37,103 nt of DNA from a virus: the UHGV virus genome UHGV-0194471. One strand, 5' to 3'. Made by a program: the position numbers and the translations under genes. Shown here one piece after another: positions 716-36,441 of the stretch (the stretch's first letter is position 1; each line of letters begins with the position of its first letter). The notes beneath the pieces were generated by a model. That model saw only the letters and a program-made list of their open reading frames with translations. It was not told where the DNA came from and made no database searches.

Positions 716-1096
716 TCACTTCCGGGGTGATTTTACTGCTTCAGGTTCATCAATGATAGAGAATAATGGGAGCTGTCGGCGGGCGCTTTCAGAACGCTGG
801 ATCTTTTTCACCACTTTGTAGATCCACTGCAAAGTCAGGTTGTACTTCTTCGCCAGTTCGCGGTAGTTGCGTCCATCACACTCCTGCCAGATTTTATAGT
901 CCCGCGCCGATGTCATGAAGACCATGCCTTTGGGCAGGTAAATGGTTTGTCCGCCCCATGCCTGCATCATGTGATTAGCCACAGCGACGGCAATCTGTTC
1001 AGCGATATCATCTTCCATTCCAACCATTTCTTTCAATGTGTTTGCGACGTGGTGCGCAAGGTCAGCAAAGATTTCTGGCTGTTGCGGTTCTTTCAT
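716..1096 (-). CDS. Mor/C-family transcriptional activator (middle/late gene activator)
   Basis: C-terminal HTH pattern ...YLPKG...DYKIWQECDGRNYRELAKKYNLTLQWIYKVVKK typical of Mu Mor/C; start moved to the internal ATG preceded by GGGAGGGG, which overlaps the upstream stop as ATGA. Confidence 0.7.
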   Translation of the reverse strand: MKEPQQPEIFADLAHHVANTLKEMVGMEDDIAEQIAVAVANHMMQAWGGQTIYLPKGMVFMTSARDYKIWQECDGRNYRELAKKYNLTLQWIYKVVKKIQRSESARRQLPLFSIIDEPEAVKSPRK

Positions 1097-1497
1097 CTTC
1101 CCCTCCCGACACGTGCCAGCCATTTTTTCAGTTGTTCAATCACCTGGCTGGCCTGCTGATTGTTAAGCCACTCCAGCCGGGCGACGCCTGTCTGGCGTTG
1201 TACGAACTTATTTAACGCCGACAAACTGCCATCTCTGACCGTACCGCTGGAAGTCAGTTCCTGCCATAACGCGCGGATCATCGCAGACTGCTTATCATAG
1301 GAAGGAGGCTCTTTAGATGTGACTTTGAAGCCCTGTTTTTTCATCACAGCGAAAGCCTTAGCCAGTTGTGAGTCGCTCATTACCCGTAACGATTCACTGC
1401 CGCAGTGTGTTTTAAGTAATTGTCGATACGTAGCCTCATCCAGTCGCAGCTCTCGCCGGGCAACATGGATAACCCGCAATAATTGTGCTCTGTTCAT
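1093..1497 (-). CDS. GemA-like protein (Mu gp16 family)
   Basis: 134 aa, MNRAQLLRVIHVARRELRLDEATYRQLL... resembles Mu GemA; sits directly upstream of the mor-like gene as in Mu. Confidence 0.6.
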   Translation of the reverse strand: MNRAQLLRVIHVARRELRLDEATYRQLLKTHCGSESLRVMSDSQLAKAFAVMKKQGFKVTSKEPPSYDKQSAMIRALWQELTSSGTVRDGSLSALNKFVQRQTGVARLEWLNNQQASQVIEQLKKWLARVGRGR

Positions 1498-1551
1498 TCA
1501 TTCCTCCGTGAGGCGGTTATGACAGGCACAACCGCTGGATAATCAATGTGG

Positions 1552-1845
1552 CTACACGTCACCACATTGGCAGATCCCAACCATCCTTACGGTTAATACC
1601 GATGGCTCATTTGCGGGAGATATGCAGCTTTTATCGAGGCAGTAATCTTTGCCACGAGATCGGACAACCGCTGAATCATTATTGACGCTGGTTATTTTCC
1701 CTGTTTTTGTCGTTATTCTGATGCGAGTGTTACGGGCGCTCATAGATACTTGCTGCCAGGCAAAACTCACTTTGTCGCCAATGCGAAACGGTACTTCTTT
1801 CTCGGCATATTTCCCGCAGGCCGGGCATTTAACAAACATCATCAT
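1552..1845 (-). CDS. Small zinc-ribbon protein (CxxC...CxC), function unknown
   Basis: ORF with paired Cys motifs (KCPACG ... CQCG) in the early operon. Confidence 0.5.
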   Translation of the reverse strand: MMMFVKCPACGKYAEKEVPFRIGDKVSFAWQQVSMSARNTRIRITTKTGKITSVNNDSAVVRSRGKDYCLDKSCISPANEPSVLTVRMVGICQCGDV

Positions 1846-2107
1846 TTACTACCCCCAACCATTCAGCCAGTCGCGCCAGCTTTTTCGCTTTGCGATAATC
1901 GATTAGCTTTTCCATACCGTTCTGCCGGAACTGTTCGATCATGATTTCCACATCAGCCATTTCATCCGCCAGCACAGCTTCGTCACAGAAGCCTGTCAAA
2001 CCACGCGCGGTTGCGGCGCTGAGTTCGGCTGCTTCCTCGGCTAGCTTCGCCAGTTGTTTCTCCGGCCCCCACTTGCGTAAGGCTGCACGGTAGATAAGCG
2101 TTTTCAT
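1829..2107 (-). CDS. MazG-like nucleotide pyrophosphohydrolase domain protein
   Basis: 92 aa with EEAAELS ... DEMADVEIMIEQ pattern resembling the small all-alpha MazG/NTP-PPase fold. Confidence 0.45.
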   Translation of the reverse strand: MKTLIYRAALRKWGPEKQLAKLAEEAAELSAATARGLTGFCDEAVLADEMADVEIMIEQFRQNGMEKLIDYRKAKKLARLAEWLGVVNDDVC

Positions 2108-2313
2108 GCGCCTACCTCCGTTGCCGGGGTTAATTCCATAGTGGGAATAAAGGCGTTATAAGCCTGCTCGCAGTGCGGACAGAGCAAAATTAAATTTACG
2201 CACCACTCCTTATATTCATCAGTCTGCAATAAGCTTGCTTGTTGAAAATCCAGTTCAGTGACTTCTTTTTTGCAGTACACACATTTAATCGTCGCCATCT
2301 CACACCCCCGCAA
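2104..2313 (-). CDS. Small zinc-ribbon protein (CxxC x2), function unknown
   Basis: 69 aa with CVYCKK ... CPHCEQ; overlaps neighbouring genes in an operon-like arrangement. Confidence 0.5.
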   Translation of the reverse strand: MRGCEMATIKCVYCKKEVTELDFQQASLLQTDEYKEWCVNLILLCPHCEQAYNAFIPTMELTPATEVGA

Positions 2314-2917
2314 TATTCAGCACGACAGGCTGGTATTTATCGCTATCACCGACACGCTGATAAACCCGCACGTAACTTGTTGAGTTCACCACCTGCACCG
2401 ACTCGCCAATGGCCTCCATTGCCTTCAGCCAGCGTGGGTCGGTAATTTCATAGCGGCGCAGCGCCAGTACGCGCCCGGTGGAGATGTTGCCCTCTTTATC
2501 TTCTGCGAATGATTTCTCCACGATGACCTTCAGCTCTGGCGTGGCCTGTGCCGTCCACTCATGCAGGCACTCATCAATCAAGTTACGGGCGGCTTGTAAC
2601 CGTTCATCAAAGGCGATGTTTTCGGCAATCTGGCGCTGGATCTTGTAGCGACCATCAAATGAATGCAGGGTGATGTTGCCTTTCTTGCCTCCGGGGCGGG
2701 CATCATATTGTTCAACGGACAAATCAATAAACGCCTGTATATCGCCAAAACAGCGGTTTTTAAACTCAAGTAATTCAGCATTCATTTTCATTGCGTCGGC
2801 GACGATCTCCTTTACCAGCGCATCGCGTGCGCGGTCAATGGGCTTGATCATAGACTCGGGAACCAGACAACCTTTGGCGTCCTGCCAGTAACCTGCGGGG
2901 ATAGTTTTTTCAGTCAT
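2300..2917 (-). CDS. Conserved early-region protein of Mu-like phages (possibly DUF3164-type), function unknown
   Basis: 205-aa ORF directly downstream of the B-like gene; family name is from memory only. Confidence 0.45.
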   Translation of the reverse strand: MTEKTIPAGYWQDAKGCLVPESMIKPIDRARDALVKEIVADAMKMNAELLEFKNRCFGDIQAFIDLSVEQYDARPGGKKGNITLHSFDGRYKIQRQIAENIAFDERLQAARNLIDECLHEWTAQATPELKVIVEKSFAEDKEGNISTGRVLALRRYEITDPRWLKAMEAIGESVQVVNSTSYVRVYQRVGDSDKYQPVVLNIAGV

Positions 2918-2988
2918 AAAATAGTCTCCAGGGTGATTTCAGGGTGTGCGAAGCCTGCCGGGTTGACGGCATTTTTCTGCGACCTGAA

Positions 2989-3117
2989 TTAATTAAATAA
3001 GGCTATGAATATAAAAATCAGTGTAGTTATAGCGCTGGCCCATAATACAAAACGGTCAGCCAGCGATATCTTGCGGTATTGCATCACGTCCTTTCCGGTT
3101 AATTTGTGAAATACCAT
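2989..3117 (-). CDS. Candidate 42-aa hydrophobic peptide (not in the supplied ORF track)
   Basis: ATG at 3117 preceded by AAAGGAG 8 nt upstream; translation MVFHKLTGKDVMQYRKISLADRFVLWASAITTLIFIFIALFN has one predicted transmembrane helix; fills a 200-bp gap. Confidence 0.3.
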   Translation of the reverse strand: MVFHKLTGKDVMQYRKISLADRFVLWASAITTLIFIFIALFN

Positions 3118-3119
3118 TT

Positions 3120-4244
3120 TCACACTCCTTTAATCACATCCGCATTCACCACCGGCACGCCGATATCAGCGGCCAGATTCATTGCGGCGATAACCAGATT
3201 CCCCAGCGCCAGCGGATAAAGCAGACTGACGTCACCGCGTCGGGATGAATTACATAATCGGGCGCGGATAGCATCGGCGGTGCTATCATCCAGCACCTCG
3301 GAAACACCTTTCCCGGTACGCTGAAATTTGAACGCCAGAAACGCTTCCAGATAGTTATCCAGCGGCAGCAGTTCGACGACCTCGCAGCGCTGTACCACTT
3401 CGCGCACCTCCTGATTACGTTCAGAAAGTTTCAGCTTTAGCTCCGGCTGGCCAATCAACACCACCGACAGCAGCTTTTTAAAGCCGTCCTCCAGCTCAAA
3501 GAACCGCTTCAAATGCTTGAGCGTCGGCACCGGTAGCGAGTGCGCCTCTTCAATAACCAGACAATGTGAGAACCCGGCGCGGGCCGACTCTTTCAGCACC
3601 CGGTGCAACTGGCGGTAACGGGCCTCCTGCGAGCGTTTGACGTTCTCCAGCGGTGCGATGGTGTTGATGATGGCCTCGGCAATCGACGCCGCTTTCAGAG
3701 TTTTGCCTTTGGCGTCGTTGTCTTCCATCGCAATGATGTACGGTTCGATGAGGATAACTGGCGCGTTTTCACGGTTGATGCGATCAGCCAGGTCACGGCG
3801 TAGCGTGGTTTTCCCTGCGCCGGATTCGCCAACTACGGCGATAAATCCGCCATGTCGCGCGGTCTGATACAGTGCTTCACGCACGTAGCGGATATCTGGC
3901 GTGGTGAACACGTCGTCCGCACTCTGCATAACCTCATCGGCGAACGGGTCGCGGAACAACCCAAAATGCTTCTTCGCCGCTGGATTTAATACCTGTTTTG
4001 CCAGTAACATATTTTCGTCCTCACTGGATGATGTACCGGTGCAGGCGGTGGCCGCCGTCTGCGCCTCCTTCAGTTCAATACCTTTTTCTGCAAAAAATGT
4101 GCTGATGCGCTCCCGTAGTTCTTCTGTTTTCGGCCACAGGCCGTGATTAACCATCTGCGCGATAACCGCTGCGGAAACTCCGGTAGCCTGTGCTACTGCT
4201 GCCTGAGTGATGCCACGCTGGCGCAACTGTTGTTTAATCTGCAT
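3120..4244 (-). CDS. MuB-like transposition ATPase / target DNA activator
   Basis: N-terminal HTH, Walker A GESGAGKT and Walker B-like HCLVIEEAH; lies immediately downstream of the transposase as in Mu A-B. Confidence 0.8.
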   Translation of the reverse strand: MQIKQQLRQRGITQAAVAQATGVSAAVIAQMVNHGLWPKTEELRERISTFFAEKGIELKEAQTAATACTGTSSSEDENMLLAKQVLNPAAKKHFGLFRDPFADEVMQSADDVFTTPDIRYVREALYQTARHGGFIAVVGESGAGKTTLRRDLADRINRENAPVILIEPYIIAMEDNDAKGKTLKAASIAEAIINTIAPLENVKRSQEARYRQLHRVLKESARAGFSHCLVIEEAHSLPVPTLKHLKRFFELEDGFKKLLSVVLIGQPELKLKLSERNQEVREVVQRCEVVELLPLDNYLEAFLAFKFQRTGKGVSEVLDDSTADAIRARLCNSSRRGDVSLLYPLALGNLVIAAMNLAADIGVPVVNADVIKGV

Positions 4245-4253
4245 AACTCCCCC

Positions 4254-6008
4254 TTAACCGCCGACTACGTTCAGTTGCACTCGGGCGGTAAGCTGCTGCG
4301 CGGCGGCGTCCAGTTCTTCTTCCGCCACGCCTTCTGGCCAGCGTTTCACCAGTTCCTGATACAGTGCGACGTTCCATTCCGGCAACCGTGCTTTCAGCGC
4401 CTTCGCCGCCTCGACGTGAGTCAGACGCCGGGCTTCAACGCGTGGAGCGCGTACCGGGGAATCCTGACCACGACGCGGCAGGAACGCGGGCAGTTCGCTG
4501 TCGGTGATGGGTTTATACGGGTCAAGCCTGCCGCCGAACGGCAGCGCCTTCGCTTTACGCGCCGCAGCCGCGTCCGTCTCGTTATCTGTTCCGGTAACAA
4601 TCTGCTCAATCTGTTTAGCCGCAGTCTGCGCGGGTGTATCGGCGTGGCGCTTGTGATTCTGGCCCAGCACCGCCGCGCCTTCGGCAAAGCCGTATTCGTC
4701 CTTGCGGACTTCCTCCACCAGGTGAAAATACTCGTGGCCATCGTCACCGATGAGCACTACCTGCGCGGCATCGCTGCGCCACGGATTGCGGGTGATCATC
4801 AGTTTTTCACCCACCATCACATCTGGCACGGTGGAGACGTCGTATTCCGTACCCTGAAACGACACGCGCAGCTTCGGCGTTATCTTGCGGCTTTCCGGCG
4901 CGGCAACAGCCAGTTCGCGGCAGACCTCCACCGATGGCGCTTTGATAAGCTGCTGCGCGGTGATGGTCATCCAGACGTTACTACGCGACTTGCCGTGGCG
5001 GGTGTGAATCGCGGTGGCGTTGAAGTGCTGCCGCCACAGGCGCGCTTTGGCGTTCAGTTCCTCCAGGCTGTGAACCGGCTGGAACTTCAGCCCCGGTTCA
5101 AAGCGGCGTTCGATAATGTCGCGCGCCTTTTCCACCTGCCCGGTGGCGCGGGCGTTGTGGGCTTTATGCGCCACCACGTCAATGCCCAGCGAACGACAGA
5201 GGTTCTTCGTCATAGCGGCGGTGTTGGCCGAGCCGGGGTCGAGATACAACATATGCGGCACGCCGTGGAGCACATCCGCGCCGCCGCGCTCCTGCATGGC
5301 ATTGATGAGAACGGAACAGAGATTTTCGCCAGACTCCGCCCCCATCACGTATTCAACGTAGATCCAGCCGCTGGTATGGTCGGTCAGTTCATAGCTCCAT
5401 ACCCGGTCACTGGCGATACGTTGCAGGTTCTTCGGCTTGTTTTTGTAGAACGTCGCGCTGTCCATCACCTGTAACCCGCGCTGGCCGTTGCTGAGGTAGT
5501 ACAGCGTGCAGAGCGAGGCGTCGATTTCCCAGACGTGATTGGGGTGCAGACTGGCAAGCTCCGTCACTGGCGCGGGCTGGCTGAGTTGATCCGGGTGCAG
5601 GCCGTAGCCACGCAGCGCCCGGATGATGGTGCTTTCTGACAATGGCACCCACTCGCCGCTTTCCTCATCCAGCCGCCCGGCGTCAATCTCGCCGTTGGCG
5701 CGTAACATCTCCACGGCATCAATGACGGAATACAGGCGCTTGCCGTTCTTACGGGTGGCTTCCGTCAGCGTAGCGGAAATCATCACCGCCTCATCGCGGG
5801 TCAGCGCGGTTTTTCCGGCGTCGGTGCGGCGCTTGCGTTTATCGGTCACGGCAACCTCCTTTATTCTGCGTAACAGCGTGGCGCGGGACAGGCCAAGTTC
5901 CGCGCAGGCGGCAGTGTAGATTGCGCCGCGTGCGCCATGCCCGGCCTGCCGTGCAGCCTGAGCAACAGCAACTAAGCGTTCGGTCATGACGGCGCTCATG
6001 GTCAGCAT
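4254..6008 (-). CDS. Mu-family DDE transposase
   Basis: 584 aa with an integrase-type catalytic core (candidate DDE residues in WEIDAS, YLDPGS, QVEKARDIIERRFE); position upstream of the B-like ATPase. Confidence 0.8.
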   Translation of the reverse strand: MLTMSAVMTERLVAVAQAARQAGHGARGAIYTAACAELGLSRATLLRRIKEVAVTDKRKRRTDAGKTALTRDEAVMISATLTEATRKNGKRLYSVIDAVEMLRANGEIDAGRLDEESGEWVPLSESTIIRALRGYGLHPDQLSQPAPVTELASLHPNHVWEIDASLCTLYYLSNGQRGLQVMDSATFYKNKPKNLQRIASDRVWSYELTDHTSGWIYVEYVMGAESGENLCSVLINAMQERGGADVLHGVPHMLYLDPGSANTAAMTKNLCRSLGIDVVAHKAHNARATGQVEKARDIIERRFEPGLKFQPVHSLEELNAKARLWRQHFNATAIHTRHGKSRSNVWMTITAQQLIKAPSVEVCRELAVAAPESRKITPKLRVSFQGTEYDVSTVPDVMVGEKLMITRNPWRSDAAQVVLIGDDGHEYFHLVEEVRKDEYGFAEGAAVLGQNHKRHADTPAQTAAKQIEQIVTGTDNETDAAAARKAKALPFGGRLDPYKPITDSELPAFLPRRGQDSPVRAPRVEARRLTHVEAAKALKARLPEWNVALYQELVKRWPEGVAEEELDAAAQQLTARVQLNVVGG

Positions 6009-6301
6009 CCTTCCGGTAGTTCGGGAACTAACATCCAGTGGGTGATCTGTTTTGCCGGGTACGTTTCACTGGTGCAGTGAAACTCGCCATCAATATAGTT
6101 AGCGGTTTCCACGCCGTAGCCATCACAGACCAGCACAAGGTCATAGTCACCAGGCAGTTGTGCGTCAGTGGCTATCCACGGTGAGGCCAGCGCATCCTTA
6201 AAAGCGACTCTCAGCAGTCGGCCACCGAGGATATCGGCGTTAAAGTGGTAACTCGGCTCCTGCGGAGCCTTAGCGAAATCAATAACTAATGTGCGGATCA
6301 T
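6002..6301 (-). CDS. Hypothetical early protein
   Basis: 99-aa ORF whose stop overlaps the transposase start; no family recognised. Confidence 0.45.
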   Translation of the reverse strand: MIRTLVIDFAKAPQEPSYHFNADILGGRLLRVAFKDALASPWIATDAQLPGDYDLVLVCDGYGVETANYIDGEFHCTSETYPAKQITHWMLVPELPEGC

Positions 6302-7233
6302 GCGGCGTTCTCCTTATCGGTGGTCATCCAGTCCGGGCGTTCGATTTTAGGCGTGGGGTTTGTTACCCACTCCGGCGCGGCGTCACTGCGTGGTTCGACA
6401 GCAAGGCCAAACTCTTCACGCAGATAAACGGTGGCGCTGTCAATCTGGCATAACAGCCCGGTCATAAAGGCGTGAGGGTGCGTCTGAACCAGTGCCGAAT
6501 GATGTTGATTCAGGACGGTAAAAGCTTCGTGGAGCTTGCCGCGAATAATGGCCTCGGCTTCGAAGGCAATAGCCATGACTTCCTTGCGCAACTGCTCGTC
6601 CTCCACATCCGGGGGCGGCGGCGCGATGCGGGATTTTTTGGCAAGCTGGGTGGAGAGGTTGTCGATTTTGCTGTTCTTGTCAGCCAGAACGCGGCGCTGG
6701 GCGTCGGCGTCCTCGCGAGCTTCACGCAGGGCGGCGCGGAGTTCGCGACTGGTCATACGGTCGATATCGTCGAGGGTTAGCCCGGCAACGGTGCCGCCTT
6801 CGGTCAGGGCAGTGAGTTCGTCGTCATCTTCTGCCATTAACTCGAATAGTTTGGTTTTACCCAAATGTGCCAGCGCTGGCATATTTGATTTCAGCGCTGG
6901 AGATAAATATTTGGTTGATGCCTGCATCATCCTTACTGACGTGCGATATGGTAAGCCCAGTTCCTTTTCAATAAGTTCGATAAACTCCCCATGCGGCTCA
7001 TTCTCTTTCAGAATCACCAGGCGCTTACCCGCTTCCAGCATTGCCTCGGCGCTCTGCGACATATAAAACCGAGCCTCATGCACCACTCGGTCGCGCTCAT
7101 ACGGAAGGCCGTCGCCGAACTGCTGCATAATTTCGATGCGGTGTTCCGCCAGCGCGTTCAGGCTGACGTTCAGTTCAGTGTTCAGCGGTGCGTCCGGCAC
7201 CAGTTCAACAGGTGGTGATTTTTGACGTGCCAT
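6298..7233 (-). CDS. Hypothetical early protein (311 aa)
   Basis: Long ORF in the early operon with charged helical segments and a proline stretch; no family confidently recognised. Confidence 0.5.
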   Translation of the reverse strand: MARQKSPPVELVPDAPLNTELNVSLNALAEHRIEIMQQFGDGLPYERDRVVHEARFYMSQSAEAMLEAGKRLVILKENEPHGEFIELIEKELGLPYRTSVRMMQASTKYLSPALKSNMPALAHLGKTKLFELMAEDDDELTALTEGGTVAGLTLDDIDRMTSRELRAALREAREDADAQRRVLADKNSKIDNLSTQLAKKSRIAPPPPDVEDEQLRKEVMAIAFEAEAIIRGKLHEAFTVLNQHHSALVQTHPHAFMTGLLCQIDSATVYLREEFGLAVEPRSDAAPEWVTNPTPKIERPDWMTTDKENAA

Positions 7234-7244
7234 TAACTTGCTCC

Positions 7245-7544
7245 TTAGCGACTGCCAGCCAGCAACCGCTGATTCATTTCATTCAGCCTGTCCTGAGCGC
7301 GTGTGACTTCCGTCGCGTGGGCGTGGGCGATTTGCAGCATCGCCATACTCATGGCGAAGCGCCCATTTTCCAGCCGTTGTACCAGTCCCTCTTCGATCAG
7401 AGTGTCAGCGGCGCGGGTGATATTGGCCGGGGATTCATGCAACGCCGCCGCCAATTCGCCATTGGACAACCCAGTGAGCGAGTAGCCTTTCAGGGCTTTG
7501 AGTACGCGCAGGATACGTGCGCCGGAAGTAGAGGTGGGTTTCAT
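7245..7544 (-). CDS. Putative winged-helix DNA-binding protein
   Basis: ARILRVLKALKGYSLTGLSNGELAAALHESPANITRAADTLIEEGLVQRLENGRF resembles an IclR/MarR-type N-terminal HTH. Confidence 0.45.
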   Translation of the reverse strand: MKPTSTSGARILRVLKALKGYSLTGLSNGELAAALHESPANITRAADTLIEEGLVQRLENGRFAMSMAMLQIAHAHATEVTRAQDRLNEMNQRLLAGSR

Positions 7545-7780
7545 GCATGCATCTCCAGTGGTTGGACATGGCGGCTGATGTAGTGGTCAGAACAGGTGAT
7601 GTTGCCTGGATCGTCCGGGCCGTTCAGCCCGGCAAACTCATCAACCAGAAATACGCTATATGCGGATAATCCCTGCTGACGCGGAACGCGGCGAATAAAC
7701 GTGCCGTGGTATGGAGTTGATTGGCCAAATGAGGGCGTAATCAGTACGCGCTGGCTGGGGGTTAAATCGGTAGGTTTCAT
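7541..7780 (-). CDS. Hypothetical early protein
   Basis: 79-aa ORF overlapping its neighbour's start/stop. Confidence 0.4.
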   Translation of the reverse strand: MKPTDLTPSQRVLITPSFGQSTPYHGTFIRRVPRQQGLSAYSVFLVDEFAGLNGPDDPGNITCSDHYISRHVQPLEMHA

Positions 7781-9079: not shown

Positions 9080-9156
9080 ACATGTTGTAAACAAAACAAA
9101 AAAGCGTGCAGACAGCACGCATTTACTATCTAACTCTACTGAAGGTTTCAGATTCT

Positions 9157-10188
9157 ATGCCAGCAAATGAACCTGCAAATGCAATCGTTGTAAATCATGT
9201 GGTTATTCACCTTTTAGATAAAGAGCCGCATGGGGTGACATCCTTACAGCTTAGCCCAGCAGAGAGTGGCGTCACCGCAGCATCACAACGCTTAATAGAT
9301 GATATCTGTGGGAAATATGCAGGGCGAATGGGGAAAGGTTATGGCCATTTTGAAGATGACCCTGACAATTACCCGATGCAAACAATCGTATCAGACTATT
9401 TAGCTCAAGAGCATCCTGATGATTTTTACCGTAGCTCCTGCCGCATGATTCGTCATCTGGAATCTCGGATTCAAACAACACCACTCGCTACTGGTGGCTA
9501 TGTTCTATTCGCCCACATTACGATGAATCAACACGAGCATATTTTAGTTGCCATGTTAAGCCCCACGACGGGAACTGCGGTTAACGATGCCTTTGCTATC
9601 CAGGAAAGTGTCTACCTTGATATCGACAAGCTACGTGTGGCGGGGCGTATTGACATTACGTCCTGGCAATCAGGTGCCGAACGTTATATAAGTTTCCTGA
9701 AAGGGAGCAATGCTGTATCTGGTTACTTTAAGCAGTTCCTGGGCTGTAACGATGTTTTGATCGCCAAGCGTGAAACAGAGAAATTGCGGGATGCGTTGAA
9801 AGAGTTTGCGACTGAGCAAGGGCTTGACCCCGCACGTCGAGAGGCTTTTCTGCAAACGGCCCATGACCATTTGAAGCAACTGAGCAAAGATGGTGAGCCT
9901 GTAGATCTGACAACCTTTGTGAACGCAGTCTGGCCACAAGAACCAGAACTGCTATCGACTAAGCTGGCCAACCAAGAACTGGAACTGTCGGATGGTTTTG
10001 TCCCAGATGGACGCGTACTAAAAGGAATCATTTCCTTTAAAGGAAAGTCCAATCATTGGGAGCTAAAGTTTGATCGTGCTGGTCTTCAAGATGGTTCAAT
10101 TGAGTATAATCGTGATCAGGATGTAATCATTCTAAGGAATATTCCTGATAGCTTCAGAGAAGAGATACTGGATGAGGTTGAGGAGTGA
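9157..10188 (+). CDS. YejK/NdpA-like (NA37 family) nucleoid-associated protein homolog
   Basis: ~343 aa; central segments (GGYVLFAH…ILVAMLS…YLDIDKLRVAGRIDITSWQ…ERYISFLKG…FLGC) resemble the E. coli YejK family as recalled from memory; start placed at ATG 9157 (GAAGG upstream) rather than the track start 9106. Confidence 0.5.
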   Translation: MPANEPANAIVVNHVVIHLLDKEPHGVTSLQLSPAESGVTAASQRLIDDICGKYAGRMGKGYGHFEDDPDNYPMQTIVSDYLAQEHPDDFYRSSCRMIRHLESRIQTTPLATGGYVLFAHITMNQHEHILVAMLSPTTGTAVNDAFAIQESVYLDIDKLRVAGRIDITSWQSGAERYISFLKGSNAVSGYFKQFLGCNDVLIAKRETEKLRDALKEFATEQGLDPARREAFLQTAHDHLKQLSKDGEPVDLTTFVNAVWPQEPELLSTKLANQELELSDGFVPDGRVLKGIISFKGKSNHWELKFDRAGLQDGSIEYNRDQDVIILRNIPDSFREEILDEVEE

Positions 10189-11393
10189 GTATCAGTTTTG
10201 AGCAACTGGTGGGATTGTACAGGCAGATTACTTTCGGTAACGATATGGCCGAAGGTACGCTGGTGCTTACCCCAGAATCCTGCGAGTTGCTCAACGCTTT
10301 GCTTGAGGACACCGATACATATGGGATCTCTCTGGCACAAGGTGAAGTAGTGGCTGGCCAGCAGGTGTCGCTTTTTGTGAACGCCCCAAAGACAAAGCTA
10401 GGTCTGCTATGCCGTAATTTGGCGGCTTTGTTAAAGTCGCCAAAACACCAAAGCGAGGAACCTTCCCGCTACTACCTGATCGACAGCCAATTTTATAGTT
10501 CGGATGCGCCAACATCTGTAATTGAAAACTACCGCACTATCTTAACATTTCTGCGCCTGCTTAAAGAAAAGTCGGCATACTTTGATACCAGTGCATATGA
10601 ATGCGTTTTTTTCCGCGCCGATGTATTTAAATTACCTATACGTTACAGTGCAGAAACCGTAGAAAATCTTGATAAAACGACACTCGATGAACTCATTCAG
10701 CAGTTTTCTGACGACACACACAAAGAGCAGAAACTCTCGCTTTTAATTGAAAGCATCCAGTTAATCGGTCAGGAAACGGAAAACAATAAAGTCTTTGAGT
10801 ATGCACTGAAGAACATTGATAAATTAAAAGTTGAGTTCGATAAGGGTTATCGCCTCTTCACTTCTGGGTTCTCATACGAAAAGGTTCTGGATGAACTTAG
10901 AACCGCCAAAGTTGAAGAAATGGGACGTATCCATAAAGTCTTTTCAGATATCCAAAACCAGATACTGGGTATCCCAGTCGCAACCATTATCGTCGCGACA
11001 CAAATCAAGAAAGCAAGTGGTGATGTCTATCAAACCATTATCAATAGCGCAGTTTTTTTAGGGGCCTTTGTTTTTGCTACGTTGGTTATGTTGACTTTGT
11101 TCAACCAGTTACAGACGTTAACTGCTATCAAAGAAGAACTTCGACATAAAAAGACTCAGGTTGATAAAAAGTATGCATCAATAAAAAATGACATTGATAG
11201 TATCTTTTGCTCTGTACGTAAACGTCTTTGCCGTCAGGTTATCGCGTTCTGGTTTATTATTATGTTCCTTGTTGTCGCTATTATATCGACAGGATTAATT
11301 TACCTATACTGCACATACCCTGAAACATGGAATATCTTGGTTACAAAAGTGATGTCATGGCGGCATCACTTGAGTAATAAGCCCACTCCTTAA
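10185..11393 (+). CDS. Membrane-anchored protein of unknown function (large cytoplasmic N-domain, C-terminal TM helices)
   Basis: GTG start overlaps the upstream stop (GTGA); predicted TM segments AVFLGAFVFATLVMLTLF and VIAFWFIIMFLVVAIISTGLIYLY; markedly AT-rich. Confidence 0.55.
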   Translation: MSISFEQLVGLYRQITFGNDMAEGTLVLTPESCELLNALLEDTDTYGISLAQGEVVAGQQVSLFVNAPKTKLGLLCRNLAALLKSPKHQSEEPSRYYLIDSQFYSSDAPTSVIENYRTILTFLRLLKEKSAYFDTSAYECVFFRADVFKLPIRYSAETVENLDKTTLDELIQQFSDDTHKEQKLSLLIESIQLIGQETENNKVFEYALKNIDKLKVEFDKGYRLFTSGFSYEKVLDELRTAKVEEMGRIHKVFSDIQNQILGIPVATIIVATQIKKASGDVYQTIINSAVFLGAFVFATLVMLTLFNQLQTLTAIKEELRHKKTQVDKKYASIKNDIDSIFCSVRKRLCRQVIAFWFIIMFLVVAIISTGLIYLYCTYPETWNILVTKVMSWRHHLSNKPTP

Positions 11394-25056: not shown

Positions 25057-27831
25057 GTGGCTGCTGAATTTTCAATCGGTGTTCTTATTAGTGGCGCAGT
25101 CACTGGCGCATTTCGTTCTGCTATTGGAGGAACCCAGCGAGCGTTAAACGATCTCCAATCCACCACGCAGCGATTGCAAAACCGTCAGGCCGCGCTGACG
25201 CAGGCGATGACACGTTACGGGCAGGCAGGTATTAGCAGTACATCCCGGCTCAACAACGAATTACAGCAAGTCAGTCGCACAATGGCGCGGCTGGAAAGCC
25301 AGCAAAATAAATTATCCAGCGCAACGGCGCGTAGCCAGGCGATGCGTTCGCAGCGGATGGATCTTTACGCCCAGGGTGCAGAGACCTACGCGCTGGCCAG
25401 AACGATGTCGGCCCCTCTGGTGTCGTCAGTGAAAACCTATGCGGGGTTTGAATCAGGGCTGCGGGATATTGCCGTGACCGGGGATCTGGACAGTAAACAG
25501 GAAGCGGCGATCGATAACGCCATCCGTCAGGCAGCGGGTAAAGTCAACCAGTTGCAGGAAACGCTACTCGGTGGCGTGAATCAACTGGTAGCCGATGGTA
25601 TGAACCCGGAGAAAGCGGCGGGAATGGTGGATTTGCTTGGTAAAACCGCCACGGCCACCAAGGCTGATATGACCGATCTGGCAAAAATGACTTTCGCTTT
25701 TAGCGATGCCTTGAAGATTAGCGATGGAAAGGAGATGCAGGAAGCCTTTGCAATGGCAGCGGTCGGAGCAAAGACCGGCTCCTTTGAACTGAAAGATATG
25801 GCAAAGGCATTGCCTACCCTGACAAAAAGCTTTGCGGCTAAAGGTATTACGGGTAAGGAAGCGATTAAAGAAATTGTCGCCTCTCTCGAAGCTGCAAAAG
25901 GCTCTGGTTCGGCAGAAGAAGCCGTGACCAATATGACCAACTGGATGGGCGCAATGACGCGCGGCGATACCGTCAAGAAATATGAAAAGGCGGGCGTAAA
26001 TTATGAAGCGTCGATGAAAGATTATGTCGCCAAAGGTTATTCGCAATATGAAGCCTCGCTGATGATTGCTGACCGCTTTATTAAAGGTAAAGGCGATGCC
26101 TTTATAAAACAGTGGCAGGAAGCGGGGGCACGTGGCGACGGTGAGTCGCAACAGAAGTTGATGGAGTCGTTTGGTCTGTCGGAGGTTTTTACCGATATTC
26201 AAACCGTCAATCATCTGCTTTCCATGCGTCAGAACTGGGATCAATATCAGTCGAATAAAGCCAAAATGGGTGACCCGGCATCACAGAATGTGCTGGATAC
26301 TGATTTTAATAAGCAAAACGATACCCTGGAAGCCCGCTGGCGAAGCTCGCAGGTAGCGATGAATGAGATGGCAATCAGTATCGGTAGTTCTCTACGCCCG
26401 GCACTGGTCGAATTATCGGAAAGTCTGCTGCCAGTAATGAGTTCTTTTGCAAAATGGCTTTCAGCTAACCCGGAGATGGTGGCGAATATAGCCAAACTAC
26501 TGGCCGGATTTATTGCATTCAAAGCGGCGACGGTCGGTAGCAAGCTGGCTCTGAATATGATGTTGTCGCCGTTTGTGGATTGTATTAAAGCGGTAACGTT
26601 GCTTAACACGAAATGGCTGCTTCTGAAAACAGCCTTTTCGTCTGGCGGCAAACTGGCAGGCATCACTAAGTTGTTCGGCTCGCTAGCGCGTGGTGCCTTG
26701 TCATTAGGCAAAATCCTTGCCGGTGGATTAATGCGTGGCGTGATGATGGCCGCCCGTGCCGTAATGTTTCTGGGCCGTGCGCTGCTGATGAATCCCATCG
26801 GGTTGATTATCACTGGCATCGCGGCAGCCGCGTATCTGATTTATCGCTACTGGGGGCCCATTTCCGGCTTCTTTAAACGGCTGTGGGCGCAGGTCACGGT
26901 AGCGTTTCGCGGGGCGTGGAGCGGCATCAAAGGTATCTGGAGTGGCGTGTCGGGCTGGTTCTCTGGTATCTGGGCGCAAATCAAAACCGCATTCAGCGGT
27001 GGGATTGGCGGCGTGGCAAAGCTGATTACCAACTGGTCGCCGCTGGGCCTGTTCTATAAAGCTTTTGCCGGAGTGATGAAATACTTCGGTATCGATATGC
27101 CGAAGAACTTTACCGATTTTGGCGGTAATCTGATTAACGGTCTGATGAACGGTATCGGCAATGCGCTGACTGCTGCGAAAGAGACGGTCGTTAACTTTGG
27201 TAACTCGATTTCAGGCTGGTTTAAGGAGACGCTGGGCATTCACTCCCCGAGCCAGGTGTTTGCCGGGTTCGGCGACAATATCGCGCAAGGGGCCGCTATC
27301 GGTATCAACCGCACCGCCCCGGATGCGATTTCCGCCAGCCAACAGATGGCGGCGGCGTTAATTCCCCCGTTGCTGGATATCCGCGTTCCGGGTCTGGATG
27401 TTGCCGCAATACCACAGCGACCACCTGTTGCGGGTGGCATCGCGCCTCAACTCAACCCACTGCTGCCGAAAGTCGCACCGCCCACCATTGTGCCAGCCCC
27501 CACTGCGGCGGGTATGGCGCTGGCTGGGGCGGCGGGCGCGGTGTTATCTCGCCGCAAACCGCTGCCGCCAGTGCCACCAAAACCCGCCGTACCTGCCGTT
27601 CCTGAACTGCCGAAAAGTACCGCACCAGCCGCCAAAGGCCGCAATGCCAGTGCGCGTGTGCCGGGGCAGTCATCCGGGGTGAATGTGACCTTTGCGCCGC
27701 AAATTACCATCAAAGGCGCGGCATCGACGACCGAGGGCGAAATCACCTCTGCGCTGAAACTGAGCCTGCACGAACTTGAAAAGATGATGGAGCGGATTAT
27801 GGCGCGTCGTGAACGCCGGGAGTATGCATAA
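25057..27831 (+). CDS. Tail tape measure protein
   Basis: 924 aa, GTG start after GGGAG; long helical protein with internal hydrophobic segments and a Pro-rich C-terminal region; sits after the chaperone. Confidence 0.75.
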   Translation: MAAEFSIGVLISGAVTGAFRSAIGGTQRALNDLQSTTQRLQNRQAALTQAMTRYGQAGISSTSRLNNELQQVSRTMARLESQQNKLSSATARSQAMRSQRMDLYAQGAETYALARTMSAPLVSSVKTYAGFESGLRDIAVTGDLDSKQEAAIDNAIRQAAGKVNQLQETLLGGVNQLVADGMNPEKAAGMVDLLGKTATATKADMTDLAKMTFAFSDALKISDGKEMQEAFAMAAVGAKTGSFELKDMAKALPTLTKSFAAKGITGKEAIKEIVASLEAAKGSGSAEEAVTNMTNWMGAMTRGDTVKKYEKAGVNYEASMKDYVAKGYSQYEASLMIADRFIKGKGDAFIKQWQEAGARGDGESQQKLMESFGLSEVFTDIQTVNHLLSMRQNWDQYQSNKAKMGDPASQNVLDTDFNKQNDTLEARWRSSQVAMNEMAISIGSSLRPALVELSESLLPVMSSFAKWLSANPEMVANIAKLLAGFIAFKAATVGSKLALNMMLSPFVDCIKAVTLLNTKWLLLKTAFSSGGKLAGITKLFGSLARGALSLGKILAGGLMRGVMMAARAVMFLGRALLMNPIGLIITGIAAAAYLIYRYWGPISGFFKRLWAQVTVAFRGAWSGIKGIWSGVSGWFSGIWAQIKTAFSGGIGGVAKLITNWSPLGLFYKAFAGVMKYFGIDMPKNFTDFGGNLINGLMNGIGNALTAAKETVVNFGNSISGWFKETLGIHSPSQVFAGFGDNIAQGAAIGINRTAPDAISASQQMAAALIPPLLDIRVPGLDVAAIPQRPPVAGGIAPQLNPLLPKVAPPTIVPAPTAAGMALAGAAGAVLSRRKPLPPVPPKPAVPAVPELPKSTAPAAKGRNASARVPGQSSGVNVTFAPQITIKGAASTTEGEITSALKLSLHELEKMMERIMARRERREYA

Positions 27832-28748
27832 TGTTTGCCGTACTGGGTGATATTGAGTTTGAGGTGGTGACCTACTGGGACGGCTTTGATGCGTCGTTTG
27901 GTATGGATTATGCCGAACATGCCCGCATTGAAGGCAAACCGGGGTTGCAGTTTATCGGCGAAAAGCTGGATGAAGTGAGTATCAGCCTAGTGTTCCACGA
28001 TCACTATTGCCAGCCGGATGTTGAACTGGCGCGACTGCGTGACGCAATGGTGGCGCATCAGGCGCTGGCGCTGGTATTTGGCAACGGCGACTATCGCGGC
28101 TGGTTTGTGGTAACCGATATTCGGGCAACCAGCCAGCAGACCGATGGCCTCGGTAATGTGCAGGCGTTAAGTGCAGAGCTGTCGCTGAAGGAGTACATCG
28201 GCGATCCGAAAAATCCCCTGACGCCACCGGCTGTGTCCGGGGACGATCCGAATATCGATTCGTGGTCTGACGATGCCGACGACAGTTTTTCCGGCAGCGA
28301 TATGTTCGACGGCCTAAGCGATATTACCGACGGGCTGGATGCGGCATCGGACGCGCTGGATGCCGCAGAGCAGGCGTTCGATGAGGCAGTGTCGTGGGCG
28401 GAAGATGTGGTGGAGCAAGTTGAAGATGCGATTGATGACGTACTTTCACCGCTGGAGGACGTTCTCAATGAGGTGTTATCACCACTCGATGAGGTGATGC
28501 AGGCGCTGGAGGGTATCATGGGCGGCGGCGTACTGACCGATGCTCTCGGCGAGGTCGGGCAAGTCGCCTCGCAGATTTACGATGAAATCAGCAGTACGTT
28601 GACCGGGCTTGACGGTATCACCCCCGACAACTTTGCCGATCTGTTCTCGCAGGCACTGGACGTGGTGCGCAACGGTCAGTCATTGATGGAAGCGTGTTCT
28701 CCCGCCGTTAGCAGGCTGGCGGCGGCAATCATTACCAGGAGCGTGTGA
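27831..28748 (+). CDS. Mu N-like DNA circulation protein / P2 gpU-like tail protein, with acidic C-terminal extension
   Basis: N-terminal ~120 aa resemble the DNA_circ_N / gpU fold; the C-terminal ~170 aa are strongly D/E-rich with repeated VLSPL(E/D) motifs. Confidence 0.55.
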   Translation: MFAVLGDIEFEVVTYWDGFDASFGMDYAEHARIEGKPGLQFIGEKLDEVSISLVFHDHYCQPDVELARLRDAMVAHQALALVFGNGDYRGWFVVTDIRATSQQTDGLGNVQALSAELSLKEYIGDPKNPLTPPAVSGDDPNIDSWSDDADDSFSGSDMFDGLSDITDGLDAASDALDAAEQAFDEAVSWAEDVVEQVEDAIDDVLSPLEDVLNEVLSPLDEVMQALEGIMGGGVLTDALGEVGQVASQIYDEISSTLTGLDGITPDNFADLFSQALDVVRNGQSLMEACSPAVSRLAAAIITRSV

Positions 28749-28966
28749 TGGGCGGCTGGATTGAACATATCACCACCGAGGGCGAGCGCTGGGATAATCT
28801 GGCGTTCCTCTATTACGGCGATCCAATGGGCTATGAGCGCATCATTGTCGCTAACCCCCATATTGCGATCACGCCGACACTGGCCTCCGGGCTGCGGTTG
28901 CGTATTCCGGTGATCGGCCCGATGCAGGTGCATAACGTTGATGAGGTGCCGCCGTGGCTCAGGTAA
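28745..28966 (+). CDS. Tail protein X-like (LysM-like)
   Basis: 73 aa, …WDNLAFLYYGDP…ANPHIA…LASGLRLRIPV resembles P2 gpX. Confidence 0.55.
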   Translation: MMGGWIEHITTEGERWDNLAFLYYGDPMGYERIIVANPHIAITPTLASGLRLRIPVIGPMQVHNVDEVPPWLR

Positions 28967-30054
28967 ATGCCGTTATCACCCCCGTTTTCACCCTGTTTTA
29001 CGGGCAGAAAGATATCACTCACGATATTGCTCCTTTTGTCCTGAGCGTGACGTATACCGACAGTCTCAAGAGCGAATCGGATGAAATCGACGTGCAGGTG
29101 GAAGACACCGCCGGGCGCTGGCGCGAGGCGTGGTATCCGGGCAAAGGCGATATGCTGATGCTGAAGTTGGGCTATCAGGGCGAAGCGTTGCTGGACTGTG
29201 GAGCGTTCTCCATCGATGAGATTGAGCTGGGCGCACCGCCGGATACGGTATCCATTCGCGGCGTGGCGACGTCGGTCAACAGCGCTCTGCGTACCGCCTC
29301 CAGCGAGGGCTACGAAGAGACGACGCTGGATGCGATTGCCAGCCGTATCGCGCAGAAGCATGGTCTGAAGCTGGTCGGTCAGATAGAGCCGATTACCATT
29401 GACCGGGTGACGCAATACGCGGAAACCGACGTCGGTTTTCTGAAGCGGCTGGCGGGTGAGTATGGTTATGCGCTGAAAGTCACCACTGGCGAGCTGGTGT
29501 TTTCCCATCTGGCTACACTGCGAAGTAACGCGCCGGTGACGACGCTGACGCCGCAGGATGTAGCGCGCTGGTCGCTGCGCGATACCATCAACCGCATCTA
29601 TAAGGATGCAAAGGTGGCGCATCAGAAGAGTAAAGAGAAGACGCTGGTGACGTACCACGCCGACGGCCCGCCGACCACGGAGACGCGTGGTAAATCGACC
29701 AGCGCCGATACGCTCAAGGTCAATGCACGGGCGGCGGATCAGGGGACGGCGCAGGTGAAAGCCGAGGCGGCGCTGGATGACCATAACGAGTATCAGCAGA
29801 CCGGTTCGCTCTCGATGATGGGCAACACGCAGCTTATCGCCGGGAACAAAATCACTCTCGACGGGTTCGGCGTGCTCTCCGGGGAGTGGCTGATCACCAG
29901 CGCCCGTCACTCGTTTGACCGTTCATCGGGCTACAGCACCGAAATTGAGGTCGGACGTGGCCCGAAAACGGCCTCCGGCGGCGGGAAGAAGAAAAAACCG
30001 GATACGCTGACCGTCTATCACCCGGACGGCCCACCCACCCAGGAGAAAAAATGA
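28954..30054 (+). CDS. Tail protein, P2 gpD / Mu P-like
   Basis: 366 aa in the conserved position after the X-like gene. Confidence 0.6.
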   Translation: MAQVNAVITPVFTLFYGQKDITHDIAPFVLSVTYTDSLKSESDEIDVQVEDTAGRWREAWYPGKGDMLMLKLGYQGEALLDCGAFSIDEIELGAPPDTVSIRGVATSVNSALRTASSEGYEETTLDAIASRIAQKHGLKLVGQIEPITIDRVTQYAETDVGFLKRLAGEYGYALKVTTGELVFSHLATLRSNAPVTTLTPQDVARWSLRDTINRIYKDAKVAHQKSKEKTLVTYHADGPPTTETRGKSTSADTLKVNARAADQGTAQVKAEAALDDHNEYQQTGSLSMMGNTQLIAGNKITLDGFGVLSGEWLITSARHSFDRSSGYSTEIEVGRGPKTASGGGKKKKPDTLTVYHPDGPPTQEKK

Positions 30055-35667: not shown

Positions 35668-36441
35668 ATGAAAACATTACCCATTATTCCGTGGCCCGGC
35701 GGTAAGCGTCGTCTGGCCAAAAAGTTATTACCGTTATTTCCTGAGCACCAGTGTTATGTAGAGCCATTCTGCGGCGGTGCAGCCTTGTATTTCATGAAGG
35801 AGCCGGTTGAAGCTGAAGTCCTGAACGATATCAACGGCGAACTGGTGAATCTGTACCGTGTGGTTAAAAATCATCTTGAAGAGTTTGTGCGCCAGTTCAA
35901 GTGGGCGTTGAGCAGCAGGCAGATTTTTGAATGGTCGAAAATGACCATCCCGGAGACGCTAACTGATATTCAGCGTGCAGCGCGGTTTTATTATCTCCAG
36001 AAGCAATCATTCGGAGGGAAAGTGGAATCACAGACGTATGGAACGGCGACCACTTCTGCACCACGGCTTAATCTGCTAAGGCTGGAAGAGGAGTTGAGCG
36101 CCGCCCATTTGCGGCTATCACGCACGTTTGTAGAACATTTACCGTGGCGTACCTGCATTGAGAAGTATGATCGCCCGCACACACTGTTCTATTGCGATCC
36201 CCCGTATTGGGGAACGGAGGGCTACGGTGTTGAATTTGGACTGGAGCAGTACACCCAACTTGCAGAGTTGGCCAGAACGATAAAAGGCAGGATGTTGATC
36301 AGTGTGAACGATATCCCGGAGATGCGTGAAACCTTTGCGGACTTGTCGATTGATACGGTAGATATTCGCTATACGTTGAGCGGTGGGCCTAATGCTAATC
36401 GCTCGAAAGTCAGCCGTGAGCTGGTCATTCGTAACTGGTAA
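35668..36441 (+). CDS. dam: DNA N6-adenine methyltransferase (Dam-like)
   Basis: FCGGAA (AdoMet-binding motif I-like) and DPPY catalytic motif; 257 aa; last gene before the prophage right end. Confidence 0.8.
   Translation: MKTLPIIPWPGGKRRLAKKLLPLFPEHQCYVEPFCGGAALYFMKEPVEAEVLNDINGELVNLYRVVKNHLEEFVRQFKWALSSRQIFEWSKMTIPETLTDIQRAARFYYLQKQSFGGKVESQTYGTATTSAPRLNLLRLEEELSAAHLRLSRTFVEHLPWRTCIEKYDRPHTLFYCDPPYWGTEGYGVEFGLEQYTQLAELARTIKGRMLISVNDIPEMRETFADLSIDTVDIRYTLSGGPNANRSKVSRELVIRNW

Follow-up and report, generated by a model that had tools for sequence, protein, structure and literature searches.

What is the strongly acidic region that ends a tail protein in the virus genome UHGV-0194471, and what might it be for? 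The stretch of DNA analyzed here (37,103 nucleotides, hereafter the window) is a transposable prophage that resembles Mu and has a P2-type tail. The region in question is held by its 305-aa open reading frame (ORF) 27831..28748 (+), encoding a gpU-type protein, in which the codon of residue 134 starts at 28230 and the stop codon takes in the last letter, 28748. The initial annotation, made without database searches, had described 28230-28748 as a repetitive, D/E-dominated helical extension of an N/gpU-like protein and named DNA mimic and flexible spacer as possible roles. Our results point elsewhere: residues 134-305 are probably the linker and the helical bundle of a baseplate centerpiece (tube initiator) of the long gpU type, from a BcepMu-like transposable prophage, and we hold this assignment with good, though not full, confidence.

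Profile searches demonstrated, at the sequence level, that gpU belongs to the PF06995 (Phage_P2_GpU) and PHROG 788 families. Residues 6-123 match profile positions 1-119/120 of PF06995 (4.7e-36; 123.5 bits at a cut-off of 27.5), which is the sole Pfam domain of the protein and covers only its N-terminal part. PF07157 (DNA_circ_N), the Mu N family, does match Mu gp43 and was not among the Pfam matches of gpU; hence, the conserved N-terminal domain is that of P2 gpU, not that of Mu N. The PHROG 788 profile ('tail protein', 297 positions) aligns through its positions 1-296 with residues 1-304 (2.1e-94); taken by themselves, the last 172 residues still match positions 136-296 (6.6e-13). Among 5.8 billion proteins searched, 252 were homologues with an E-value below 0.001; of the best 120 of these 252, most are 289-327 aa long and come from Enterobacterales prophages. 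The C-terminal domain (CTD) is co-linear in all aligned homologues, with L208 and L219 nearly invariant. A C-terminal motif of the type S-x-L-A-A-x-I-x-T-R, represented in the window by PAVSRLAAAIITRSV (28701..28745 (+)), is also kept, S294 and R303 being invariant in the family as sampled by 50 aligned sequences; the same motif ends the proteins of Burkholderia phage BcepMu and Pseudomonas phage Komp_PAO1_1. Going by these alignments, the extension is a normal feature of the BcepMu-type long-gpU family and not a peculiar add-on. When the CTD alone was compared with 1.84 billion representative sequences, the single real relative was a member of its own clade (P0012, 2e-44). The other 12 matches, weak and to long helical-repeat proteins including tape-measure- and TPR-containing ones, were set aside as uninformative.

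The charge of the extension is beyond dispute, and its coordinates had been given exactly. Residues 134-305 (172 aa) contain 27 D, 12 E, 3 R and neither K nor H, which gives a net charge of -36, and residues 134-240 are 29% acidic with zero basic residues (net -31). We scanned all reading frames of at least 100 codons between stops on both strands of the 37 kb; the most acidic 107-residue window lies in gpU (-32), while the next locus outside the gene reaches -14. To call the extension dominated by D/E is nevertheless an overstatement, as these residues make up only 23% of it, with A, S, L and V of about equal frequency. A 142-aa Ser-rich antisense ORF, 28091..28519 (-), overlaps the acidic region and mirrors its GAx-rich coding strand; we found no evidence that this antisense ORF is a gene.

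The repeats described for the extension are likewise present, although fewer than the initial annotation implied. A regular expression for VLSPL[ED][ED]V hits the translation exactly twice, at VLSPLEDV (residues 204-211, 28440..28463 (+)) and, with a spacing of 11 residues, at VLSPLDEV (residues 215-222, 28473..28496 (+)). TRF detected no tandem repeat in the DNA; short direct repeats occur at 21-nt spacing. Autocorrelation of hydrophobic residues has maxima at lags of 4, 7, 11 and 18, and that of D/E at lags of 7 and 10 (z ~3.4-4.3 relative to shuffled sequences); the hydrophobic periodicity of the CTD is strong, with a period of 3.5-3.67 residues. The repetitiveness is therefore better described as the heptad/hendecad periodicity of amphipathic helices. 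In the 327-aa relatives (P0005, P0007 and L066), the 22 extra residues are two further 11-residue units of the type (D/E)(D/E)V-L-S-P-L-(D/E)(D/E)-V-L, placed just upstream of the motif copies (the corresponding region of the window is 28407-28496). Since these forms have two more units and the window has two copies, the number of hendecad repeats varies within the acidic clade.

An AlphaFold2 model built with a 50-sequence alignment divides gpU into three parts. The first is a tube-like N-terminal domain, residues 1-124 (27831..28202 (+)), which contains the Phage_P2_GpU match, is ~76% identical to its counterpart in relatives with a basic CTD (the basic clade) and is also recognized by Foldseek (see below). 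It is followed by a Pro/Asp/Ser-rich, putatively flexible linker, residues 125-155 (DPKNPLTPPAVSGDDPNIDSWSDDADDSFSG; 28203..28295 (+)), which is conserved at 94-100% inside the acidic clade and for which the predicted local distance difference test score (pLDDT) falls below 50 across residues 125-154. The third part is the polyanionic helical-bundle domain, residues 156-302 (28296..28736 (+)), in which helices are predicted at 156-193, 197-229, 236-260, 268-288 and 290-302, with mean pLDDT in 10-residue blocks mostly of 80-93. The helical character ascribed to the extension is thus borne out by the model. A model of a homologue from the basic clade has the same helix layout as the window protein.

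The relatives differ widely in charge. We compared CTD charges in the best 120 of the 252 homologues and in some 50 loci (genome loci, the window, PhiKM and BcepMu) with a placeable domain boundary. In the common 294-309-aa forms, the CTD carries a net charge of +3 to +11 (+8 in BcepMu, +4 in KP12), and in a clade of 317-aa proteins it carries -5 to -20. The clade of the window, by contrast, generally ranges from -24 to -45: the window protein stands at -36 and the 327-aa variant at -45. As far as the compared sequences tell, strong acidity is lineage-specific, being peculiar to a small prophage clade. Lineage-specificity, which the initial annotation had suggested checking by alignment, therefore holds for the acidity and not for the domain itself, which is family-wide, co-linear and of similar length. 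By the same token, the tail is both family-wide and a known structural element, and its acidity is not shared across the family.

How the charge changed can be read from the alignment columns. Those occupied by hydrophobic residues in the window hold 56% VILMFW and 14% Ala in the basic clade, while those occupied by D/E hold 42% S/T/N/Q, 18% K/R and only 6% D/E. Such a pattern, with hydrophobic columns kept and D/E columns replaced, means that the scaffold was retained and the surface recharged. The acidity is thus a clade-specific recharging of solvent-facing helix positions, and the extension is neither a new domain nor a disordered tail. The overall identity to the basic clade drops from 76% in the N-domain to ~20% in the CTD.

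The ratio of nonsynonymous to synonymous substitution rates (dN/dS) is below 1 in this frame. Calculated with two relatives, it lies at 0.04-0.06 in the N-domain and rises to 0.18-0.27 in the CTD; the CTD is consequently under purifying selection four to five times more relaxed than that on the N-domain, with no sign of positive selection in these comparisons. The two halves of the gene may also have separate histories. Megablast similarity to common E. coli prophages (616 genomes) spans 27750-28231 and ends at the domain boundary, 28231, and the synonymous divergence (dS) from an E. coli relative rises from 0.28 in the N-domain to 0.73 in the CTD. Together, the end of similarity and the step in dS suggest a recombination joint inside the gpU gene. 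The tail module as a whole is carried by 2 of 5,426 complete E. coli genomes at ~86.5% identity, and the 616 further genomes share only the stretch from the end of the tape measure gene through the gpU N-domain; the DNA of the CTD had no megablast match. One more, anecdotal, sign of mosaicism is that gpJ and the CTD of the window are both nearest, after Lelliottia, to the 317-aa clade, whereas the N-domain is nearer to the 294-aa clade.

What, then, would such a domain do? In the tail module, gpU stands right after the gene of the tape measure protein (TMP) and before the hub, in the order TMP, gpU, gpX, gpD and gpV (spike). Its start ATG overlaps the TMP stop (TAATG), and its own stop overlaps the start of gpX (TGATG), a small LysM-type tail protein X of 72 aa counted from its ATG (28748..28966 (+); PF05489, 7e-16); RefSeq places the start of the gpX orthologue at the same ATG. 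Three centerpieces described in published cryo-EM studies combine the same elements. The 'baseplate centerpiece' gp25 of phage Milano begins with a tube domain (1-127); after a linker that is poorly resolved come a domain of eight helices, embedded in the groove between wedges, and LysM (PMC10811340). In the pyocin R2 centerpiece PA0626 ('Ripcord'), a tube domain is joined to a helical bundle, which glues the wedges together and on contraction is extruded along with the tube (PMC10811340). The tube-like domain of Mu gp43 (protein N) is joined by a flexible loop to a helix-rich domain with LysM, and a three-helix bundle of the Mu wedge is embedded between adjacent gp43 helix-rich domains (PMC11915804). 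Because a tube domain, a linker and a bundle, with LysM as the next gene, follow one another in the window as they do in these proteins, we assigned the CTD as a helical 'glue' domain. We infer its equivalence to the solved helical domains from architecture, synteny and literature, rather than from demonstrated homology.

Structure comparison is consistent with this assignment. The best Foldseek match of the model is a phage Milano baseplate chain, identified with gp25 (364 aligned columns), and further matches are tube-initiator-type chains from phiCD508, diffocin, pyocin R2 (285 residues), AFP and cyanophage A-1(L). E-values of only ~1e-3 to 1e-1 accompany these matches, and a difference in how the two domains are oriented to each other keeps the TM-scores low. 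The pyocin R2 chain 6u5b_g, which its length of 285 residues suggests to be PA0626, aligns with the tube domain of the model at 22% identity. An hhalign comparison with a family alignment of Mu gp43 runs co-linearly from the tube domain via the linker into the first helices, but weakly (E 5.9e-4, probability 29%). Sequence searches of the PDB with the protein, the family profile, the N-domain and a Pseudomonas homologue found no baseplate protein, only designed helical bundles, methyl-accepting chemotaxis proteins (MCPs) and viral fusion coiled coils.

By analogy with the solved centerpieces, we would propose the following scenario. The N-terminal domains of six gpU copies would assemble on the gpD hub into the first tube-like ring. 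The flexible Pro/Asp-rich linker would let the four- or five-helix bundle reach down between neighboring wedges (gpW/gpJ/gpI), beside gpX, the partner to be expected for the helical domain in such an arrangement. Sitting between the wedges, the bundle might act as glue that holds the baseplate metastable, and triggering would pull it out with the tube in a 'ripcord' manner. That the charge tunes baseplate stability, electrostatically or in a cation-dependent way, is a speculative guess on our part.

Several points weigh against this picture. At the sequence level, the CTD could not be linked to any of the three solved helical domains (PA0626, Milano gp25 and Mu gp43), and the hhalign probability mentioned above is only 29%. 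The CTD, moreover, is ~20% identical to the basic clade, as against 49-65% for gpX, gpD, gpV, gpW, gpJ and gpI, a divergence exceeding what one would expect of a tightly packed glue. The presumed partners also lack a compensating positive charge. We compared the charges of TMP, gpX, gpD, gpV, gpW, gpJ and gpI in the window, PhiKM, BcepMu and the genome loci with a placeable boundary, and found compensation in none of the seven proteins. In the window, gpJ is at -14, gpI at -13, gpW at -2, gpX at -3 and gpD at -7, and packing a -36 bundle on acidic wedges is not obviously favorable. The gpD hub (366 aa, 28954..30054 (+); PF05954) even moves in the same direction as the CTD: its charge is ~+15/+17 in PhiKM and BcepMu, and most relatives with a basic CTD have values of 0 to +18. 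A mirror-tree test, in which pairwise-identity matrices of the N-domain and the CTD were correlated with those of each tail protein, gave r = 0.79-0.93 throughout and singled out no partner. An AlphaFold2 model of a gpU-gpX fusion (P0046) was uninformative with regard to packing, as its LysM part has pLDDT <50.

Two side observations concern gpD. In the acidic-CTD relatives L007, L047, L050 and L054, this protein has no basic C-terminal tail, and in the window the tail is shortened. The motif L-x-V/T-Y-H/K-x-D-G occurs in gpD both internally and near the C-terminus.

Among other explanations, one could look for the partner of the acidic bundle in the TMP (924 aa, 25057..27831 (+); PF10145), which the bundle would bind or neutralize in the tube, in the hub or during assembly, like an acidic chaperone. 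The TMP is basic (+28), its gene lies directly upstream and is translationally coupled to gpU, and the CTD has weak matches to TMP helical segments in PHROG and in the representative library. However, these matches reflect generic helical-repeat similarity, since the same proteins also match apolipoprotein, Baculo_PEP_C and the like, and the helical domains of solved structures are placed against the wedges, on the outside of the tube (PMC11915804, PMC10811340). The charge of the TMP does not covary with that of the CTD in a compensating manner either: relatives with a basic CTD have equally basic TMPs (+14 to +35), and those of the mildly acidic 317-aa clade are at -4 to +12. We therefore regard a TMP-binding role as quite unlikely.

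It is also conceivable that in this rare enterobacterial lineage the centerpiece bundle, once turned polyanionic, took on a new task, acting either after ejection as a DNA-mimic decoy for nucleases or restriction enzymes of the host, akin to the end protection by Mu N, or as a latch bridged by divalent cations that would make triggering ion-dependent. We give this idea a small chance.

Pure DNA mimicry, one of the roles named by the initial annotation, would mean that gpU enters the cell with the DNA like Mu N and that its polyanionic bundle, like Ocr, ArdA or gp5.9, passes for DNA and so blocks a nuclease or a restriction system of the host. With a net charge of -36 over ~170 residues, located on predicted helices with periodic D/E, the gpU CTD has a high charge density, which may be comparable to that of known mimics (Ocr, ArdA). 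The CTD is evolving four to five times faster than the N-domain, and no Gam was detected in the prophage. Mu gp43, the analogous protein, was reported to enter the cell and to protect or circularize DNA (PMC11915804), and in pyocin the centerpiece departs from the baseplate along with the tube (PMC10811340). Injection with the DNA and the holding or protection of its ends are known for Mu alone, as cited in PMC11915804, and cytoplasmic entry of the window gpU would follow by analogy. Most relatives carry this domain in a neutral to basic form; mimicry would then have to be a recent secondary function, and the CTD dN/dS of 0.18-0.27 comes without positive selection. As for Gam, tblastn with PhiKM Gam found no homologue in the window, where a DUF3164 protein at 2300..2917 (-) occupies the corresponding place of the early operon (716..7600), just as in BcepMu. 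We gave no weight to the missing Gam as a hint of a decoy role, since it is common to the acidic-clade E. coli relative and to BcepMu; the latter, with its basic CTD, also has no annotated Gam, and the absence is thus not linked to acidity. No known mimic family was found in Pfam, PHROG, NCBIfam, PDB sequence or PDB fold searches. There is, in short, no evidence for DNA mimicry beyond charge density, and we consider it very unlikely.

Least probable of all is an intrinsically disordered acidic tail serving as a flexible spacer or entropic bristle: low-complexity D/S/G-rich residues 134-160 and the low pLDDT at 125-154 would suit it, but the confidently predicted long helices of residues 156-302, their hydrophobic periodicity, the hydrophobic columns conserved across clades, the invariant C-terminal motif and the purifying selection leave only the ~30-residue linker, roughly residues 125-155, to which the description of a spacer fits.

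Coming back to the centerpiece assignment, we conclude that the gpU CTD is an ordinary structural domain of a known baseplate-protein class in a rare recharged variant with a polyanionic surface. The value of this result is mainly corrective, as an apparently odd acidic appendage would be the helical domain with which tube initiators normally bind the wedges. At the same time, it is curious that a presumed baseplate glue tolerates a swing of ~45 charge units with its hydrophobic core kept and with no compensating change in its presumed partners. If that swing proved to be functional, through ion-dependent triggering or a post-ejection role, it would open a small new approach to the tuning of minimal contractile baseplates.

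Correction is also due in public records, where homologues of gpU are mislabeled as a 'chemotaxis protein' or a truncated pseudogene. The homologue of Klebsiella phage KP12 (L001 3001..3885) and the Salmonella proteins P0056, P0094 and P0098 are labeled 'putative methyl-accepting chemotaxis protein' or 'chemotaxis protein'. We rejected this label for gpU, which has no MCP Pfam domain; the family profile does match the MCP structure 2ch7 (E 2.6e-6), among many coiled-coil matches, and the labels look like an artefact of generic helical-bundle similarity. The orthologue from E. coli OkiPb01694 (L066 3969..4952; NZ_AP042564.1 ~1038289-1039272) is recorded by RefSeq/PGAP as a pseudogene, 'incomplete; missing C-terminus', with the coding sequence 3969-4406. 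Its frame is actually an intact 327-aa ORF reaching the gpX start, and it seems that the divergent acidic CTD defeats the annotation model in this case. In three 364-aa entries (P0046, P0062 and P0079), gpU is fused to gpX, with MFLEH... coming straight after TRSV, an arrangement reminiscent of Mu gp43 and Milano gp25 with their fused LysM. A frameshifted junction is present in one of the fusion entries, and these entries may be rare mutations, frameshifts or assembly errors.

Beyond the tail module, the window encodes a DDE (rve) transposase, a MuB-like AAA ATPase, GemA, Mor, the Mu portal and Mu F, and its nearest phage relatives are Bcepmuvirus-like (BcepMu, phiE255, PhiKM and KP12). Between the repressor region and the lysis/late genes lie a homologue of PF04245 (37-kDa nucleoid-associated protein, 6e-74) and a 402-aa protein without a Pfam match (9106..10188 and 10185..11393, respectively); both are also present in the OkiPb01694 prophage and may be cargo. 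A D12-class N6-adenine DNA methyltransferase is found downstream of the tail-fibre genes (35668..36441), while the OkiPb01694 prophage has Com and Mom genes instead at the corresponding end.

Finally, we would like to compare the window gpU with known systems. P2 gpU has a tube domain of the same Pfam family (BLASTP identity of 20% over residues 27-100). It is, however, only 159 aa long, with ~30 residues after the tube domain and no helical bundle, and in P2 gpD is directly the next gene. Mu gp43 and Milano gp25 share with the window a tube-like domain, a flexible linker, a helix-rich domain and a LysM module. They differ in that LysM is fused in both and encoded by the separate gene gpX in the window, and in having eight helices against the approximately five predicted for gpU; the N-domain of Mu gp43, furthermore, belongs to PF07157 and not to PF06995. 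The initial annotation did not count an extension of this kind among the features of Mu N, yet a helix-rich domain does follow the tube-like domain of Mu gp43, though without strong acidity (net -9 over 350 residues, compared with -36 for the window CTD). Pyocin R2 shares the P2-type tail module with a TMP, a long gpU, a LysM gpX and gpD, and its tube domain is likewise fused to a C-terminal helical bundle, although the helical domain of PA0626 has no detectable sequence similarity to that of the window, and phmmer found no PDB relative. The BcepMu gp45 or PHROG 788 family (phiE255 gp19, PhiKM tail protein U and KP12_258) has a full-length match and the same length class of 289-327 aa. Its members differ from the window in the charge of the CTD (+3 to +11 in most, against -36) and in its sequence, at ~20% identity, and the clade of the window also has a variable number of 11-residue units, giving 305-aa and 327-aa forms. 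The family members share with the window the tube domain (61-80% identity over residues 1-135), the co-linear helical CTD with its S-x-L-A-A-x-I-x-T-R motif, and the gene order TMP-gpU-gpX-gpD.

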